The notes below the pieces were generated by a model that saw nothing but the letters and a program-made list of their open reading frames with translations, searched no databases and was not told where the DNA came from. A stretch of 64,000 bases of DNA. It comes from TPA_inf: Saccharomyces (lineage: Eukaryota). The stretch spans positions 256,001 through 320,000 of the forward strand of contig BK006936.2 of assembly GCA_000146045.2 (NCBI GenBank), written 5' to 3'. The translations under genes were made by a program, and so were the position numbers. Shown here one piece after another: positions 2,670-10,457 of the stretch; the stretch's first letter is position 1; each line of letters starts with the position of its first letter.

Positions 2670-2976
2670 TGAGAATTATGGGAATAAGATAATTGTTGGG
2701 ATTCCATTGTTTTCAAAGGCTGTAATATTAGGTACACAGATTATACTAGAAGTTCTTTTCGAGGATATAGGAATCCACAAAAGGAAATCGATAGTTATAC
2801 ATAATAATATTATTGTATCTTACTTCCTTTTATATGTTGTCACTCATTATTGTGTCGTGCATTCCATTAGATTGGATGACTGTTTCTCAATCTTTATGCC
2901 ATCCTCTTACACCGCATGTGATATAATAGTAACATGAGTGCTGCGAAATAGATGATATTAAAATTTCATTCCAACA
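2670..2976 (-). mobile_element. Solo delta LTR (Ty1/Ty2-type), minus orientation, diverged
   Basis: The reverse complement aligns with the Ty1 LTR of this window, from ...ccaaca (complement of the TGTTGG terminus, here tgttggaatgaaa) to tgaga (complement of TCTCA). The internal ORF 2632..2937 translates to a variant of the LTR-internal ORF (AVILGTQIILEVLFEDIGI versus [19 protein letters not shown]). No clean target-site duplication is visible. Confidence 0.8.
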
Positions 2977-3146: not shown

Positions 3147-3596
3147 TTATAGACGAGAAACACTTTTATGATATCGATGTTCTACACCTACTGCCGATAA
3201 CACCGTGTTTTCACTATTATAGCATATACCATTTTTGTAACCAATGTGTTGTTGTAATTCTCCGCAAGGCATATCCCAGATATTCTTATATGGCCCATTT
3301 CCACTTCGTTGAAGCCTCACATCAAAAGAGCAATCTTGAGATAATTTCAAAACCACACACATCGCTGCAGTTTCATAATATCTGTCATCACTGATGCAAT
3401 AATTAAGTGACGAAATTATATCATTATTAACAGCTGTATTATTATTATAATCAAGACAAGCTGAATTTGATGCAAATATATATTCCCATTCAGTGCCGTT
3501 TCTTTCGAATTTATAGAAATCACTTCTTTGTAGGTAATTGTTCTGGCTTACTTTGAGCTTATTCATGTTAAAGTAATTGTTGGAATAAAAATCCAC
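3147..3596 (-). CDS. YBR012C-like ORF. Its first 6-7 codons come from the Ty1 LTR, and it is probably the 3' fragment of a Ty1-disrupted gene.
   Basis: 149-aa ORF MDFYSNNYFNMNKLKVSQ.... The start codon and positions 3578..3596 lie inside the 5' LTR. The ORF is in frame with YBR013C across the Ty1 insertion (see findings). Confidence 0.45.
   Translation of the reverse strand: MDFYSNNYFNMNKLKVSQNNYLQRSDFYKFERNGTEWEYIFASNSACLDYNNNTAVNNDIISSLNYCISDDRYYETAAMCVVLKLSQDCSFDVRLQRSGNGPYKNIWDMPCGELQQHIGYKNGICYNSENTVLSAVGVEHRYHKSVSRL
3573..3577. repeat. Ty1 target-site duplication, left copy (GTAAT)
   Basis: GTAAT immediately precedes the 5' LTR TGTTGG. The identical GTAAT follows the 3' LTR TCTCA at 9495..9499. 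Confidence 0.9.
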
Positions 3597-3909
3597 TATC
3601 GTCTATCAACTAATAGTTATATTATCAATATATTATCATATACGGTGTTAAGATGATGACATAAGTTATGAGAAGCTGTCATCGAAGTTAGAGGAAGCTG
3701 AAGTGCAAGGATTGATAATGTAATAGGATAATGAAACATATAAAACGGAATGAGGAATAATCGCAATATTAGTATGTAGAAATATAGATTCCATTTTGAG
3801 GATTCCTATATCCTCGAGGAGAACTTCTAGTATATTCTGTATACCTAATATTATAGCCTTTATCAACAATGGAATCCCAACAATTATCTAATTACCCACA
3901 TATATCTCA
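3578..3909 (+). repeat. Ty1 5' LTR (delta)
   Basis: The repeat runs from TGTTGGAATAAAAATCCACTATCG to CCACATATATCTCA. It is identical to the 3' LTR except at 2 positions. Confidence 0.95.
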
Positions 3910-5191
3910 TGGTAGCGCCTGTGCTTCGGTTACTTCTAAGGAAGTCCACACAAATCAAGATCCGTTAGACGTTTCAGCTTCCAAAATTCAAGAATATGAT
4001 AAGGCTTCCACTAAGGCTAACTCTCAACAGACAACAACACCTGCTTCATCAGCTGTTCCAGAGAACCCCCATCATGCCTCTCCTCAACCTGCTTCAGTAC
4101 CACCTCCACAGAATGGGCCGTACCCACAGCAGTGCATGATGACCCAAAACCAAGCCAATCCATCTGGTTGGTCATTTTACGGACACCCATCTATGATTCC
4201 GTATACACCTTATCAAATGTCGCCTATGTACTTTCCACCTGGGCCACAATCACAGTTTCCGCAGTATCCATCATCAGTTGGAACGCCTCTGAGCACTCCA
4301 TCACCTGAGTCAGGTAATACATTTACTGATTCATCCTCAGCGGACTCTGATATGACATCCACTAAAAAATATGTCAGACCACCACCAATGTTAACCTCAC
4401 CTAATGACTTTCCAAATTGGGTTAAAACATACATCAAATTTTTACAAAACTCGAATCTCGGTGGTATTATTCCGACAGTAAACGGAAAACCCGTACGTCC
4501 GATCACTGATGATGAACTCACCTTCTTGTATAACGCTTTTCAAATATTTGCTCCCTCTCAATTCCTACCTACCTGGGTCAAAGACATCCTATCCGTTGAT
4601 TATACGGATATCATGAAAATTCTTTCCAAAAGTATTGAAAAAATGCAATCTGATACCCAAGAGGCAAACGACATTGTGACCCTGGCAAATTTGCAATATA
4701 ATGGCAGTACACCTGCAGATGCATTTGAAACAAAAGTCACAAACATTATCGACAGACTGAACAATAATGGCATTCATATCAATAACAAGGTCGCATGTCA
4801 ATTAATTATGAGAGGTCTATCTGGCGAATATAAATTTTTACGCTACACACGTCATCGACATCTAAATATGACAGTCGCTGAACTGTTCTTAGATATCCAT
4901 GCTATTTATGAAGAACAACAGGGATCGAGAAACAGCAAACCTAATTACAGGAGAAATCCGAGTGATGAGAAGAATGATTCTCGCAGCTATACGAATACAA
5001 CCAAACCCAAAGTTATAGCTCGGAATCCTCAAAAAACAAATAATTCGAAATCGAAAACAGCCAGGGCTCACAATGTATCCACATCTAATAACTCTCCCAG
5101 CACGGACAACGATTCCATCAGTAAATCAACTACTGAACCGATTCAATTGAACAATAAGCACGACCTTCATCTTAGGCCAGAAACTTACTGA
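3869..5191 (+). CDS. TYA1: Ty1 Gag (TYA, 440 aa). The ATG lies in the U5 part of the 5' LTR.
   Basis: The ORF translation matches Ty1 Gag. The start inside the LTR at element position about 292 is standard for Ty1. Confidence 0.95.
3910..3919 (+). other. Ty1 minus-strand primer-binding site (complementary to the initiator tRNA-Met 3' end)
   Basis: TGGTAGCGCC lies directly 3' of the 5' LTR, which is the classic Ty1 primer-binding site. Confidence 0.85.
5171..5177 (+). other. Ty1 +1 ribosomal frameshift heptamer CTT-AGG-C
   Basis: An exact CTTAGGC lies 14 nt before the TYA stop. CTT is in the Gag frame and GGC in the Pol frame. Confidence 0.9.
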
Positions 5192-8100
5192 ATCTACAGT
5201 AAATCATACTAATCATTCTGATGATGAACTCCCTGGACACCTCCTTCTCGATTCAGGAGCATCACGAACCCTTATAAGATCTGCTCATCACATACACTCA
5301 GCATCATCTAATCCTGACATAAACGTAGTTGATGCTCAAAAAAGAAATATACCAATTAACGCTATTGGTGACCTACAATTTCACTTCCAGGACAACACCA
5401 AAACATCATTAAAGGTATTGCACACTCCTAACATAGCCTATGACTTACTCAGTTTGAATGAATTGGCTGCAGTAGATATCACAGCATGCTTTACCAAAAA
5501 CGTCTTAGAACGATCTGACGGCACTGTACTTGCACCTATCGTAAAATATGGAGACTTTTACTGGGTATCTAAAAAGTACTTGCTTCCATCAAATATCTCC
5601 GTACCCACCATCAATAATGTCCATACAAGTGAAAGTACACGCAAATATCCTTATCCTTTCATTCATCGAATGCTTGCGCATGCCAATGCACAGACAATTC
5701 GATACTCACTTAAAAATAACACCATCACGTATTTTAACGAATCAGATGTCGACTGGTCTAGTGCTATTGACTATCAATGTCCTGATTGTTTAATCGGCAA
5801 AAGCACCAAACACAGACATATCAAAGGTTCACGACTAAAATACCAAAATTCATACGAACCCTTTCAATACCTACATACTGACATATTTGGTCCAGTTCAC
5901 AACCTACCAAAAAGTGCACCATCCTATTTCATCTCATTTACTGATGAGACAACAAAATTCCGTTGGGTTTATCCATTACACGACCGTCGCGAGGACTCTA
6001 TCCTCGATGTTTTTACTACGATACTAGCTTTTATTAAAAACCAGTTTCAGGCCAGTGTCTTGGTTATACAAATGGACCGTGGTTCTGAGTATACTAACAG
6101 AACTCTCCATAAATTCCTTGAAAAAAATGGTATAACTCCATGCTATACAACCACAGCGGATTCCCGAGCACATGGAGTCGCTGAACGGCTGAACCGTACC
6201 TTATTAGATGACTGCCGTACTCAACTGCAATGTAGTGGTTTACCGAACCATTTATGGTTCTCTGCAATCGAATTTTCTACTATTGTGAGAAATTCACTAG
6301 CTTCACCTAAAAGCAAAAAATCTGCAAGACAACATGCTGGCTTGGCAGGACTTGATATCAGTACTTTGTTACCTTTCGGTCAACCTGTTATCGTCAATGA
6401 TCACAACCCTAACTCCAAAATACATCCTCGTGGCATCCCAGGCTACGCTCTACATCCGTCTCGAAACTCTTATGGATATATCATCTATCTTCCATCCTTA
6501 AAGAAGACAGTAGATACAACTAACTATGTTATTCTTCAGGGCAAGGACTCCAGATTAGATCAATTCAATTACGACGCACTCACTTTCGATGAAGACTTAA
6601 ACCGTTTAACTGCTTCATATCAATCGTTCATTGCGTCAAATGAGATCCAACAATCCAATGATCTTAACATAGAATCAGACCATGACTTTCAATCTGATAT
6701 TGAACTATATCCTGAGCAACCGAGAAATGTCCTTTCAAAAGCTGTGAGTCCAACCGATTCCACACCCCCGTCAACTCATACTGAAGATTCGAAACGTGTT
6801 TCTAAAACCAATATTCGCGCACCCAGAGAAGTTGACCCCAACATATCTGAATCTAATATTCTTCCATCTAAGAAGAGATCTAGCACCCCCCAAATTTCCG
6901 ATATCGAGAGTACCGATTCGGGTGGTATGCATAGATTAGATGTTCCTTTACTTGCTCCCATGTCCCAATCTAACACACATGAGTCGTCGTACGCCAGTAA
7001 ATCTAAAGATTTCAGACACTCAGACTCGTACAGTGACAATGAGACTAATCATACAAACGTACCAATATCCAGTACGGGTGGTACCAATAATAAAACTGTT
7101 CCGCAGACAAGCGAACAGGAGACTGAGAAAAGGATTATACACCGCTTCACCTCCGATCGGATACTTCCGTCATCAGAAAGTAATTCACTACACCATGTCG
7201 TTCCTATCAAAACGTCAGATACTTGTTTTAAGGAAAATACAGAGGAATCTATTATCGCTGATCTTCCACTCCCCGATCTGCCTCCAGAACCTCCTACCGA
7301 ATTATCAGACTCTTTTAAAGAACTTCCACCGATCAATTCTCGTCAAACTAATTCCAGTTTGGGTGGTATTGGTGACTCTAATGCCTATACTACTATCAAC
7401 AGTAAGAAAAGATCATTAGAAGATAATGAAACTGAAATTAAGGTATCACGAGACACATGGAATACTAAGAATATGCGTAGTTTAGAACCTCCGAGATCGA
7501 AGAAACGAATTCACCTGATTGCAGCTGTAAAAGCAGTAAAATCAATCAAACCAATACGAACAACCTTACGATACGATGAGGCAATCACCTATAATAAAGA
7601 TATTAAAGAAAAAGAAAAATATATCGAGGCATACCACAAAGAAGTCAATCAACTGTTGAAGATGAAAACTTGGGACACTGACAAATATTATGACAGAAAA
7701 GAAATAGACCCTAAAAGAGTAATAAATTCAATGTTTATCTTCAACAGGAAACGTGACGGTACTCATAAAGCTAGATTTGTTGCAAGAGGTGATATTCAGC
7801 ATCCTGACACTTACGACTCAGGCATGCAATCCAATACCGTACATCACTATGCATTAATGACATCCCTGTCACTTGCATTAGACAATAACTACTATATTAC
7901 ACAATTAGACATATCTTCGGCATATTTGTATGCAGACATCAAAGAAGAATTATACATAAGACCTCCACCACATTTAGGAATGAATGATAAGTTGATACGT
8001 TTGAAGAAATCACTTTATGGATTGAAACAAAGTGGAGCGAACTGGTACGAAACTATCAAATCATACCTGATAAAACAGTGTGGTATGGAAGAAGTTCGTG

Positions 8101-9140
8101 GATGGTCATGCGTATTTAAGAATAGTCAAGTAACAATTTGCTTATTCGTTGATGATATGATATTGTTCAGCAAGGACTTAAATTCGAATAAAAGAATTAT
8201 AGCAAAACTCAAGATGCAATACGATACCAAGATTATAAATCTAGGTGAAAGCGATGATGAAATTCAACACGACATCCTTGGCTTAGAAATCAAATATCAA
8301 AGAGGTAAATACATGAAATTAGGTATGGAAAACTCATTAACTGAGAAAATACCCAAATTAAACGTACCTTTGAATCCAAACGGAAGAAAACTTGGTGCCC
8401 CAGGCCAACCAGGTCTCTATATAAACCAGCAAGAACTAGAGCTAGAAGAAGATGATTACAAAATGAAGGTACATGAAATGCAAAAGCTGATAGGTCTAGC
8501 ATCATATGTTGGATATAAATTTAGATTTGACCTATTATACTACATCAACACACTTGCACAACATATACTATTTCCGTCCAAGCAAGTGTTAGATATGACA
8601 TATGAATTGATACAGTTCATATGGAATACGAGAGATAAGCAATTAATATGGCACAAAAGCAAACCTGTTAAGCCAACAAATAAATTAGTTGTTATAAGCG
8701 ATGCCTCGTATGGTAACCAACCGTATTATAAATCACAAATTGGCAACATATATTTACTTAATGGAAAAGTAATTGGAGGAAAGTCCACCAAGGCTTCATT
8801 AACATGTACTTCAACTACGGAAGCAGAAATACACGCAATAAGTGAATCTGTCCCATTATTAAATAATCTAAGTTACCTGATACAAGAACTCGACAAGAAA
8901 CCAATTACCAAAGGATTACTAACCGACAGTAAATCTACAATCAGTATAATTATATCCAATAATGAAGAGAAATTTAGAAACAGATTTTTTGGTACTAAAG
9001 CAATGAGACTGAGAGATGAAGTATCAGGAAATCATCTGCACGTATGCTATATCGAAACCAAAAAGAATATTGCAGACGTAATGACCAAACCTCTTCCGAT
9101 AAAAACATTCAAACTATTAACAAACAAATGGATTCATTAG
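5175..9140 (+). CDS. TYB1: Ty1 Pol (protease, integrase, reverse transcriptase, RNase H). It is expressed as a Gag-Pol fusion: 3869..5173 joined to 5175..9140.
   Basis: The +1 frame is open from the frameshift site to 9140. The ORF track gives 5418..9140 starting from the first Met. The integrase HHCC motif ([10 protein letters not shown]...[12 protein letters not shown]), the RT YXDD motif (FVDDMIL at about 8146..8166) and RNase H residues are present, with no internal stops. Confidence 0.9.
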
Positions 9141-9153
9141 ATCTATTACATTA

Positions 9154-9162
9154 TGGGTGGTA
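9154..9162 (+). other. Ty1 polypurine tract (plus-strand primer)
   Basis: TGGGTGGTA lies immediately 5' of the 3' LTR. Confidence 0.7.
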
Positions 9163-9494
9163 TGTTGGAATAAAAATCCACTATCGTCTATCAACTAATA
9201 GTTATATTATCAATATATTATCATATACGGTGTTAAGATGATGACATAAGTTATGAGAAGCTGTCATCGAAGTTAGAGGAAGCTGAAGTGCAAGGATTGA
9301 TAATGTAATAGGATAATGAAACATATAAAACGGAATGAGGAATAATCGTAATATTAGTATGTAGAAATATAGATTCCATTTGGAGGATTCCTATATCCTC
9401 GAGGAGAACTTCTAGTATATTCTGTATACCTAATATTATAGCCTTTATCAACAATGGAATCCCAACAATTATCTAATTACCCACATATATCTCA
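9163..9494 (+). repeat. Ty1 3' LTR (delta)
   Basis: It shares termini with the 5' LTR. The differences from the 5' LTR are C versus T (aatcgCaat versus aatcgTaat) and T versus G (ccatttTgagg versus ccatttGgagg). Confidence 0.95.
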
Positions 9495-9881
9495 GTAATT
9501 CACAGTTAACAACAGTTGATAAAAAATATTCTGTATACACGTCCCCACTCTGTGATAAAGCTTCCTGTTTGCTTGTAAATTAAGTGAATTTTCAAGGGCA
9601 TTATCAAAGGCCTTAGTAATAATGGTAATAATATATGGATACGAAGAATTTTTCGTATAATCGCATGCATTATTACTTAACATATTTTCAGTTGAATAAT
9701 TCATTGAAAGAGCGTCTGACTCACAAAATGGCGCAGATTTTGCCAAAGTATTATTAATTTGTACACTATTATGAGAGAGAGTTACCCCTTCAATACCCTT
9801 TTGCGTACTATTTTCAAGACATGCATAGCTACCCAACAGAAATGCACCTAGGATACATATCCTGAATAAGGGATATATCAT
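9492..9881 (-). CDS. YBR013C-like ORF (129 aa) with a predicted N-terminal signal peptide. Its stop codon is supplied by the Ty1 LTR terminus.
   Basis: The ORF begins MIYPLFRICILGAFLLGSYACLENSTQ.... Its TGA stop is the complement of LTR bases 9492..9494 (TCA of TCTCA). The N-terminus is hydrophobic and secretory-like. Confidence 0.55.
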   Translation of the reverse strand: MIYPLFRICILGAFLLGSYACLENSTQKGIEGVTLSHNSVQINNTLAKSAPFCESDALSMNYSTENMLSNNACDYTKNSSYPYIITIITKAFDNALENSLNLQANRKLYHRVGTCIQNIFYQLLLTVNY

Positions 9882-10150
9882 TATGAGGTTAAGTGGCCTA
9901 AAAACGCAATTAATACGGATCCTTGTACTATTAAGTCTTTTCTATCTCTGAAAATTAACTTAAGAAGCGAGGCTATCTAGATTAGTGTTGATGTATATGT
10001 GTATGCTGTCCTGGTGTAGCTGTGGTTTTTATAGATTATCTCAGATTTGTGATACTCTGTAAGTGGCGGCCTCATTTTGTCTCTCCTTGAATACGAAAAT
10101 TTGTGGGCTAAAGATTTATTCTCATCAACAAATCAAGTAACAATCATTCG

Positions 10151-10256
10151 TGTTGGAATAAAAATCAAATACCGTCTATCATCTAACACCGTATATGATA
10201 ATATATTGATAGTATAACTATTGGTTGATAGACGATAGTTGATTTTTATACCAACA
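10151..10256. mobile_element. Two truncated delta LTR 5' ends head-to-head: about 31 bp on the plus strand and about 75 bp on the minus strand
   Basis: The plus strand reads tgttggaataaaaatcaaataccgtctatca.... The minus strand from 10256 reads tgttggtataaaaatcaactatcgtctatcaaccaatagttatactatcaatatattatcatatacggtgttaga, matching the delta start. This forms 31-bp inverted-repeat arms (28 of 31 match) about 120 bp upstream of the tRNA. Confidence 0.75.
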
Positions 10257-10377
10257 CTAGGAAACCACAATCCAAGATGAGATAAATATAGAGGAAAATA
10301 CAAGTTTGAGTTTAGATCTGAAGTTACCTTAACATTTGTATAAGCAAATTCGCTACGCGACTCTCACATCAAAAACT

Positions 10378-10450
10378 GCTTCTATGGCCAAGTTGGTAAG
10401 GCGCCACACTAGTAATGTGGAGATCATCGGTTCAAATCCGATTGGAAGCA
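10378..10450 (+). tRNA. tT(AGU): tRNA-Thr (anticodon AGT), 73 nt, no intron
   Basis: The cloverleaf has acceptor stem GCTTCTA/TGGAAGC, an A box TGGCCAAGTTGG, an anticodon loop CTAGTAA (AGT) and a B box GGTTCAAATCC. It matches remembered yeast tRNA-Thr(IGU). Confidence 0.9.
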
Positions 10451-10457
10451 TTTTTTT
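10451..10457 (+). terminator. Pol III terminator T-run
   Basis: TTTTTTT lies immediately after the tRNA 3' end. Confidence 0.7.

Follow-up and report, generated by a model that had tools for sequence, protein, structure and literature searches.

The killer toxins Klus and KHR belong to a single family, and CSS2/YFR020W is a homologue of Klus. The KHR1 gene proper has been reported on chromosome IX, and both KHR1 and KHS1 are often inactive in natural strains. A second point of reference is the locus itself, as the split between YBR013C and YBR012C is already known. "Core gene set of the species Saccharomyces cerevisiae" (bioRxiv 10.1101/2023.09.07.545205, also PMC12157680) describes the two as the same single gene, disrupted by Ty1 in S288c, considers YBR012C not dubious and the S288c allele a potential null, and describes frameshift alleles in other strains; a row of its supplementary table pairs YBR013C with YBR012C under the entries "insertion," "Ty1 insertion," and "S288c." Translation of YBR012C and purifying selection on it have also been reported. 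Two reference ORFs of S288C labeled "uncharacterised" and "dubious" are therefore, as the literature already holds, halves of a single genuine gene with a null allele in the lab strain, and deletion-collection phenotypes of either half are uninformative about the intact gene. The available portions of the text and supplement of the core gene study assign no protein family or function to this gene and make no mention of a neighboring KHR-type gene.

Here, we analyzed the locus within a window of 64,000 nucleotides (the whole stretch of contig BK006936.2 under study, to which all coordinates refer). We conclude with high confidence that Ty1 interrupted one gene of 270 codons on the minus strand, the intact product of which is homologous to KHR, putatively secreted, and toxin-like. 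Our addition to the published account is modest and consists of the membership in the KHR/Klus superfamily and the repeated occurrence of a KHR-type neighbor.

The Ty1 element and the interrupted reading frame

A full-length Ty1 of 5917 bp with TG...CA ends, read from the sequence, occupies 3578..9494 on the plus strand. Its direct long terminal repeats (5' LTR, 3578-3909; 3' LTR, 9163-9494) are 332 bp each with 2 mismatches between them, and the element carries a TYA ORF (3869-5191), a TYB ORF ending at 9140, and the +1 frameshift heptamer CTTAGGC at 5171. The coding domains were confirmed with Pfam (TYA, E = 8.5e-233, plus rve and RVT_2), including those of integrase and reverse transcriptase. 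Copies of a 5-bp GTAAT target-site duplication lie to the left (3573..3577) and right (9495..9499) of the element. A Pol III gene, tRNA-Thr(AGU), follows on the plus strand at 10377..10451, 883 bp beyond the 3' end of the element at 9494, with two short delta-LTR fragments at 10151..10256 in between. The region upstream of a tRNA gene is the usual target neighborhood of Ty1, and this tRNA gene is also found in loci without the element. Ty1 integrated between codons 129 and 130 near tRNA-Thr(AGU), with the usual 5-bp duplication.

On the minus strand, the 5' fragment (annotated as YBR013C; 9495..9881) comprises codons 1-129, including the signal-peptide-like residues 1-20, and matches residues 1-129 of the fused protein at 100% by tblastn on the window. 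The corresponding ORF, 9881..9492, encodes 129 amino acids (aa) ending in ...TVNY followed by a TGA formed by LTR bases 9492-9494 read in reverse complement, just as the initial annotation had described. The 3' fragment (3147..3577, minus strand) comprises codons 128-270 and the stop codon and is annotated as YBR012C from the ATG at 3566. The earlier placement of the start of ORF 3596..3147 at an ATG inside the 5' LTR was wrong: this ORF opens with GTG at 3596 within the LTR, and its first in-frame ATG (3566..3564) is in flanking DNA, 12 nt beyond the LTR. When Ty1 and one GTAAT are deleted, 9881..9500 continues into 3577..3147 as one unbroken reading frame of exactly 270 codons, with both codon series beginning at positions congruent to 2 modulo 3, and the junction at 9500/3577 reads ...QLLLTVNY followed by FNMNKLKVSQNNYLQ... 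The exact, stop-free joining of frames that had been asserted for this excision therefore holds. In the downstream segment, the remaining two frames are broken by 7 and 22 stops, and the chance of an open 270-codon frame at the local base composition is approximately 2e-10. Several glycosylation sequons and scattered cysteines had been noted in the joined protein, and we counted 6 N-x-S/T sequons and 11 Cys. Strong hydrophobicity is confined to residues 1-20, where an SYA motif occupies -3/-1.

The full-length protein cannot be made from the S288C-type allele. The YBR013C piece retains the promoter side and the signal-peptide-like N-terminus, with its 129-aa product ended by the LTR-supplied TGA, whereas the YBR012C piece has lost the start and the putative secretion signal and is annotated from an internal Met. 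As Ty1 interrupts the region of KHR homology described below, neither fragment holds the whole secretable domain. We find it very improbable that the insertion instead made functional new products, namely, a truncated N-terminal protein of 129 aa that is secreted and/or a domain of 139 aa in the cytosol placed under Ty1 control through transcription leaving the 5' LTR side. The reported translation of YBR012C would fit such a gain, as would the orientation of the 3' fragment, which is divergent to the 5' LTR, an arrangement in which Ty1 is known to influence neighboring genes. However, the 139-aa fragment has neither the signal peptide needed by a Cys-rich secretory domain nor the KHR-homologous part upstream of residue 130. 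The insertion allele is also rare, as the exact 129-aa YBR013C protein was seen on 2 contigs only and the published table gives the insertion for S288c.

Intact alleles, homologues, and recurrent lesions

The interruption of one gene is best seen by comparison with other strains. The computed 270-aa fusion is identical to an annotated protein (P0008) of other S. cerevisiae strains, and near-identical 270-aa proteins are present in EC1118, VL3, and YJM789 on 84 and 77 contigs (>160 in total). The 270-aa form is the common one in S. cerevisiae. At one Ty1-free locus (L003), the genes run GRX7-[270 aa]-IPP1, the DNA is colinear with the window on either side, and one GTAAT is present; GTAAT is likewise single copy across the Ty1-free syntenic loci L003-L006. 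The initial annotation had proposed that one ancestral gene was cut into the YBR013C and YBR012C remnants and that a contiguous ORF might exist in other isolates. Both ideas are supported by the fusion protein and the colinear empty site, and Ty1-free alleles do not in general carry a stop or frameshift at the junction. The S. cerevisiae protein has a 15-aa tail peculiar to the species, in which the ancestral stop codon has been lost.

Across species, the expectation of a contiguous ORF stood for S. kudriavzevii, S. eubayanus, and Naumovozyma castellii, with derived stops in S. paradoxus CBS432 (codon 103) and S. uvarum (codon 158) as exceptions. The homologues of S. kudriavzevii and S. eubayanus (S. 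pastorianus subgenome) are 253 aa long and contiguous across the junction, as is a second S. cerevisiae paralogue. The N. castellii protein NCAS_0J00930 (255 aa) aligns end to end (39% identity over 251 aa, E = 1e-59) and is uninterrupted at the junction. The syntenic S. paradoxus copy (L020, CBS432) is colinear at the DNA level with the whole 270-codon gene and has acquired, in its own lineage, a nonsense codon at Q103, which precedes the junction by 27 codons. Another candidate S. paradoxus orthologue (L011; protein P0002, 85% identical) was rejected because the P0002 protein also occurs in S. cerevisiae, on another chromosome, adjoining a KHR-type gene. The homologues of S. kudriavzevii, S. 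eubayanus, and S. uvarum are in subtelomere-like contexts and not between GRX7 and IPP1, and they are treated as homologues, not as established positional orthologues.

These comparisons leave almost no room for YBR013C and YBR012C as two independent small genes, or one real and one spurious, that flank Ty1 by chance. Such a reading would accommodate their separate annotation, the translation of YBR012C by itself reported from ribosome profiling in the S288C background, and the 139-aa and 123-aa proteins called by some annotation pipelines in other strains and in S. paradoxus. These calls look like transfers of S288C gene models, however, because in S. paradoxus the DNA runs colinear with the whole 270-codon gene. 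The exact frame join, the identical fusion in other strains, the colinear Ty1-free locus, and the N. castellii and KHR homology that crosses the junction all speak for one gene, and independence of the two ORFs is already refuted by the contiguous ORFs.

Whether the single gene has a function is a separate matter. Lesions recur throughout its distribution, including a stop at W158 in the S. uvarum homologue, loss of the start at locus L007, S. cerevisiae alleles truncated to 124, 172, and 204 aa, and a frameshift at L012. These stops and frameshifts are derived lesions and not the ancestral state, and the recurrent inactivation implies that any function is dispensable. The dN/dS ratio is 0.29-0.36 overall, 0.16-0.29 for codons 130-253 in all pairwise comparisons, and 0.30-0.59 for codons 1-129, values that indicate purifying selection on both sides of the junction. 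The locus could accordingly be a decaying pseudogene throughout Saccharomyces, with the contiguous ORF a functionless relic and the Ty1 insertion without phenotypic consequence. Many independent nulls (stops in S. paradoxus and S. uvarum, the start loss at L007, and frameshifts in S. cerevisiae), dN/dS values of up to 0.6 in the N-terminal half, the loss of the ancestral stop codon in S. cerevisiae, and the frequent inactivation of the relatives KHR1 and KHS1 in natural strains agree with decay. We nonetheless judge general decay unlikely, given the low dN/dS of the C-terminal domain in every pairwise comparison, the retention of full-length homologues from Saccharomyces to Naumovozyma, and the commonness of the 270-aa form in S. 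cerevisiae, where the published study ranks the gene as core.

Kinship with KHR and the adjoining KHR-type gene

A new point of this analysis concerns the family to which the disrupted gene belongs. By sequence similarity, the intact protein is a diverged paralogue of killer toxin KHR (PF20521/DUF6736, the Klus/KHR/CSS2 family). Compared to a protein annotated as "Killer toxin KHR" (P0058), it has 32% identity over 154 aa by BLASTP (residues 94-246, E = 1e-21), an alignment that spans the junction, and scores 99.3% with hhalign; P0058 itself passes PF20521. Against PF20521 members, hhalign gave 99.4% (E = 4.8e-22). Searching the window with P0058 by tblastn recovered a match at 3548..3222 (E = 1.6e-17) in the 3' fragment, which carries nearly all of the KHR/DUF6736-like domain, and in the intact protein the KHR homology covers ~130-150 residues at the C-terminus. 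A profile built from the Saccharomyces proteins also reached, library-wide, proteins of K. africana (E = 2.7e-15) and T. phaffii (E = 5.1e-17), both of which pass PF20521. In the Pfam scan, the 270-aa protein had no match to any family, PF20521 included, even at E<=1, and the same was true of the other Saccharomyces and N. castellii homologues. Neither CSS2/YFR020W nor the Klus preprotoxin turned up in word-indexed protein searches with two alignments, and the tie to CSS2 and Klus comes from Pfam/UniRef naming and the literature, not from direct comparison here. A profile search of PDB sequences returned chance matches only. AlphaFold2 with 5 Saccharomyces sequences gave an unusable model (mean pLDDT of 32) and, with 13 sequences, was confident for residues 140-255 only. 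Accession numbers of YBR013C-type proteins are not among the contents of the supplements to a review of killer toxins.

The initial annotation suggested a resemblance to a secreted protein, which agrees with both the hydrophobic N-terminal segment and the homology to killer toxins that are secreted. The intact protein would enter the endoplasmic reticulum by way of a putative signal peptide at its N-terminus, probably cleaved after SYA20, and would be N-glycosylated, disulfide-bonded, and secreted. No YBR013C-type protein carries the KR-DDGD Kex2 site that is conserved in KHR-type toxins, and processing into an alpha/beta heterodimer is therefore improbable; the single dibasic pair of the intact protein, R106-K107, is unconserved. 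Based on these features, we expect a secreted protein that is toxin-like but not processed in the manner of a classical killer toxin.

In some S. cerevisiae strains, the site of the delta fragments (10151..10256) holds ~1.8 kb of extra DNA with a KHR-type gene directly upstream of the intact gene. The pairing of KHR-type and YBR013C-type genes was observed in four settings: the chromosome II tandem of some S. cerevisiae strains, a second S. cerevisiae locus, N. castellii, and neighboring genes in K. barnettii. As a KHR-type gene lies repeatedly beside it, the intact gene may act with, or protect against, the adjacent toxin. A more specific proposal, which we put forward only tentatively and consider doubtful, is that it is the conserved partner of the KHR-type toxin in a two-gene cassette, serving as immunity factor, antidote, or co-toxin. 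The cassette appears to be mobile between tRNA-adjacent and subtelomeric sites. If this proposal is true, both halves have been lost in S288C, the toxin gene being absent and its partner split by Ty1. In either case, S288C, a widely used "toxin-free" host, is without both members at the chromosome II locus. The kinship with KHR and the adjoining gene offer a hypothesis for a core gene that lacks an assigned function, namely, a role in secreted toxin biology, and natural strains with both genes intact exist in which such a role could be examined.

Compared to known systems, the insertion resembles other S288C-lineage Ty1 alleles near tRNA genes: the element is complete, its two LTRs are nearly identical, the target-site duplication measures 5 bp, and a Pol III gene follows within ~1 kb; its sole peculiarity is that the LTR end gives the truncated ORF its stop. 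The intact protein differs from the KHR family in the absence of the KR-DDGD site, an N-terminal half unrelated in sequence, and an extra Cys at 210. Its signal-peptide-like N-terminus would correspond to the secretion signal of the KHR/Klus/CSS2 family, and what it shares with that family is the C-terminal pattern W...C...DVRxQRS...IWDMPCG...C.

A gene split by Ty1 in S288C

YBR013C and YBR012C are the 5' and 3' parts of one minus-strand gene. The initial annotation proposed that a Ty1 insertion had split a single ORF into these two, which we could confirm both on the sequence itself and through a contiguous ORF in other strains. The full-length Ty1 (plus strand, 3578-9494, 5,917 bp) was delimited by its LTRs, target site duplication, and TYA/TYB content. 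Its two 332-bp LTRs (3578-3909 and 9163-9494) are identical except for 2 mismatches, copies of GTAAT flank it on both sides (3573-3577 and 9495-9499), and the integration point lies 883 bp upstream of tRNA-Thr(AGU). The TYA ORF (3869-5191; Pfam TYA, E = 8.5e-233), with the +1 frameshift heptamer CTTAGGC at 5171, is followed by a Ty1 ORF carrying integrase and RVT_2 domains. The Gag N terminus encoded by TYA (...KIQEYDK...) appears to differ from that of canonical Ty1-H3 and may represent a Ty1 subfamily variant. A degenerate solo delta LTR (2680-2923, minus strand), 75% identical to the Ty1 LTR, is located between the 3' end of the gene and IPP1; it is found in Ty1-free strains as well.

The upstream minus-strand ORF (9881..9492, 129 amino acids) stops, as first described, at a TGA that is the complement of LTR bases 9492-9494. 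When 3578-9499 is deleted, 9500 abuts 3577 in the same codon phase, so that the frames join exactly as predicted. The joined frame, once translated, is open for exactly 270 codons and reads ...QLLLTVNY|FNMNKLKVSQNNYLQ... across the junction with no stop. An open frame of this length has a chance of about 2e-10 at this composition, and 7 and 22 stops occur in the two alternative frames of the downstream part. One detail did not hold: the downstream ORF (3596..3147) was said to start at an ATG in the LTR, but the codon at 3596 in the LTR is GTG, and an ATG first occurs at 3566, 12 nt beyond the LTR. Ty1 integrated at codon 129/130 of a KHR-family gene; the LTR end furnishes the stop of the 5' fragment (YBR013C), and the 3' fragment (YBR012C) was left with neither start nor signal sequence. 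The S288C allele of the combined gene is probably null.

The split is correct, ordinary in kind as a Ty1 insertion allele, and previously published: YBR012C/YBR013C [quoted passage not shown] ("Core gene set of the species Saccharomyces cerevisiae," bioRxiv 10.1101/2023.09.07.545205; PMC12157680), and the supplementary table of that preprint lists "Ty1 insertion" for S288c and a frameshift for YJM1381 and others. A separate ribosome-profiling study found YBR012C to be translated, with distant TBLASTN matches outside Saccharomyces and a dN/dS of 0.5. All that we add is the assignment to a protein family and the KHR-type gene next to it.

Intact and inactivated copies in other strains and species

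The exact 270-amino-acid sequence that we computed is annotated in other S. cerevisiae strains, and near-identical proteins of 270 amino acids ("YBR013C-like," EC1118_1B15_1420p, SCY_0229) are present on 84 and 77 contigs. At a Ty1-free syntenic locus (L003, GCA_029990785.1), the gene lies in the order KAP104-like, MNN2-like, glutaredoxin, 270-amino-acid ORF, pyrophosphatase, and histones. This empty site matches the window at 99.3 to 99.7% on both flanks, which meet at one GTAAT; three Logan contigs have the same arrangement. No stop or indel across the junction was found in DNA of S. kudriavzevii (L008), the S. eubayanus subgenome of S. pastorianus (L009), or a second S. cerevisiae paralogue locus (L011). 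The full S. eubayanus ORF encodes 253 amino acids, including a signal-like N terminus, and N. castellii NCAS_0J00930 (255 amino acids) aligns end to end with the 270-amino-acid protein (39% identity over 251 amino acids, E = 1e-59). Nei-Gojobori estimates of dN/dS were 0.29 to 0.36 overall, 0.16 to 0.29 for codons 130 to 253, and 0.30 to 0.59 for codons 1 to 129.

Other copies are inactivated. S. paradoxus CBS432 has a colinear copy at the syntenic position, flanked by GRX7 and IPP1, in which codon 103 is changed from CAA to TAA; in the S. uvarum copy, codon 158 is changed from TGG to TGA and 9 nt are deleted; a further homologue (L007) has lost its ATG and contains a frameshift; and S. cerevisiae strains include alleles of 124, 172, and 204 amino acids and a frameshift in L012. 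These inactivating lesions are lineage specific, each at a different position. They establish that the gene is dispensable; they are not evidence for an ancestrally split gene. In S. cerevisiae, the ancestral stop changed from TAG to TCG (3147-3194, codons 255 to 270), adding the 15-residue tail SAVGVEHRYHKSVSRL, whereas the ORF ends at ...NSENxML in all other species.

Homologues in L008, L009, and S. uvarum (L010) occupy subtelomere-like contexts near contig ends (PAU/SRP1_TIP1, acetyltransferase, and PHO-type phosphatase genes), and the L007 homologue adjoins DUP, PAM16, and MEF2-like genes. None of these four lies between GRX7 and IPP1. Shared sequence is limited to about 1.1 kb surrounding the gene, so the gene or gene pair has moved.

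KHR homology and a KHR-type neighbor

Pfam gave no match for the 270-amino-acid protein. A profile built from the Saccharomyces proteins recovered 12 proteins among 1.8 billion representatives, including K. barnettii KABA2_14S00154 (annotated as similar to YBR012C), K. africana KAFR_0I02950, and T. phaffii TPHA_0O00100. The latter two pass Pfam PF20521 (DUF6736) and are named "Secreted protein CSS2 C-terminal domain-containing" in UniRef. When the Saccharomyces family was aligned profile to profile with members of PF20521, the probability was 99.4% (E = 4.8e-22, residues 118 to 246). Searching with the PF20521 alignment led to a 306-amino-acid S. cerevisiae "Killer toxin KHR," which itself passes PF20521 and is 32% identical to our protein over 154 amino acids (residues 94 to 246, E = 1e-21; hhalign, 99.3%). 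KHR also matches the window DNA directly (3548..3222, E = 1.6e-17). The homology spans the Ty1 junction and is thus additional evidence for a single gene. Published work groups Klus with KHR in a single killer-toxin family and describes Klus as a homologue of CSS2/YFR020W; the literature consulted assigns KHR1 only to chromosome IX.

The gene for this KHR-type protein is present at the same chromosome II locus in S. cerevisiae GCA_030036235.2 and GCA_949124795.1, between tRNA-Thr/LTR fragments and the intact 270-amino-acid gene, on the same strand and 560 bp upstream. The segment bearing it (about 1.8 kb; L013 4414-6227, also L012) is absent from the window, L003, and S. paradoxus; in the window, delta-LTR fragments (10151-10256) border the gap (10145-10256). 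KHR-type genes accompany YBR013C-type genes elsewhere: the pair is consecutively numbered on another chromosome in strain CPA, N. castellii carries a 111-amino-acid KHR-type remnant immediately upstream of NCAS_0J00930, and K. barnettii has a 260-amino-acid KHR-type ORF 2.5 kb distant. Because this linkage recurs, one could speculate from gene order that the two form a "cassette."

Several of these loci have further peculiarities. At L011 (723-1643), the upstream KHR-type gene comprises two ORFs in different frames (139 amino acids ending KRDDGDE* and 57 amino acids) and is therefore a pseudogene; the downstream 255-amino-acid YBR013C-type paralogue is intact. The N. castellii remnant (L016 5024-5359) is 88% identical to the C terminus of the S. 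cerevisiae chromosome II KHR-type protein, whereas the adjacent YBR013C-type genes are only 39% identical. Such incongruence points to horizontal transfer or to a toxin domain under very strong constraint. Between the KHR-carrying haplotype (L013 6228-6870) and the S288C type (window 10144-9494), divergence is about 7% in the promoter and the gene's 5' half and less than 1% in its 3' half. The protein sequence encoded by the divergent 5' half nearly matches that of S. paradoxus, suggesting introgression or old polymorphism with a recombination point within the gene.

The intact product is probably toxin-like: secreted, glycosylated, disulfide bonded, and not subject to Kex2 processing. Compared with KHR-type members, it does not contain the KR-DDGD Kex2 site, its N-terminal half is unrelated in sequence, and it has an additional Cys at position 210.
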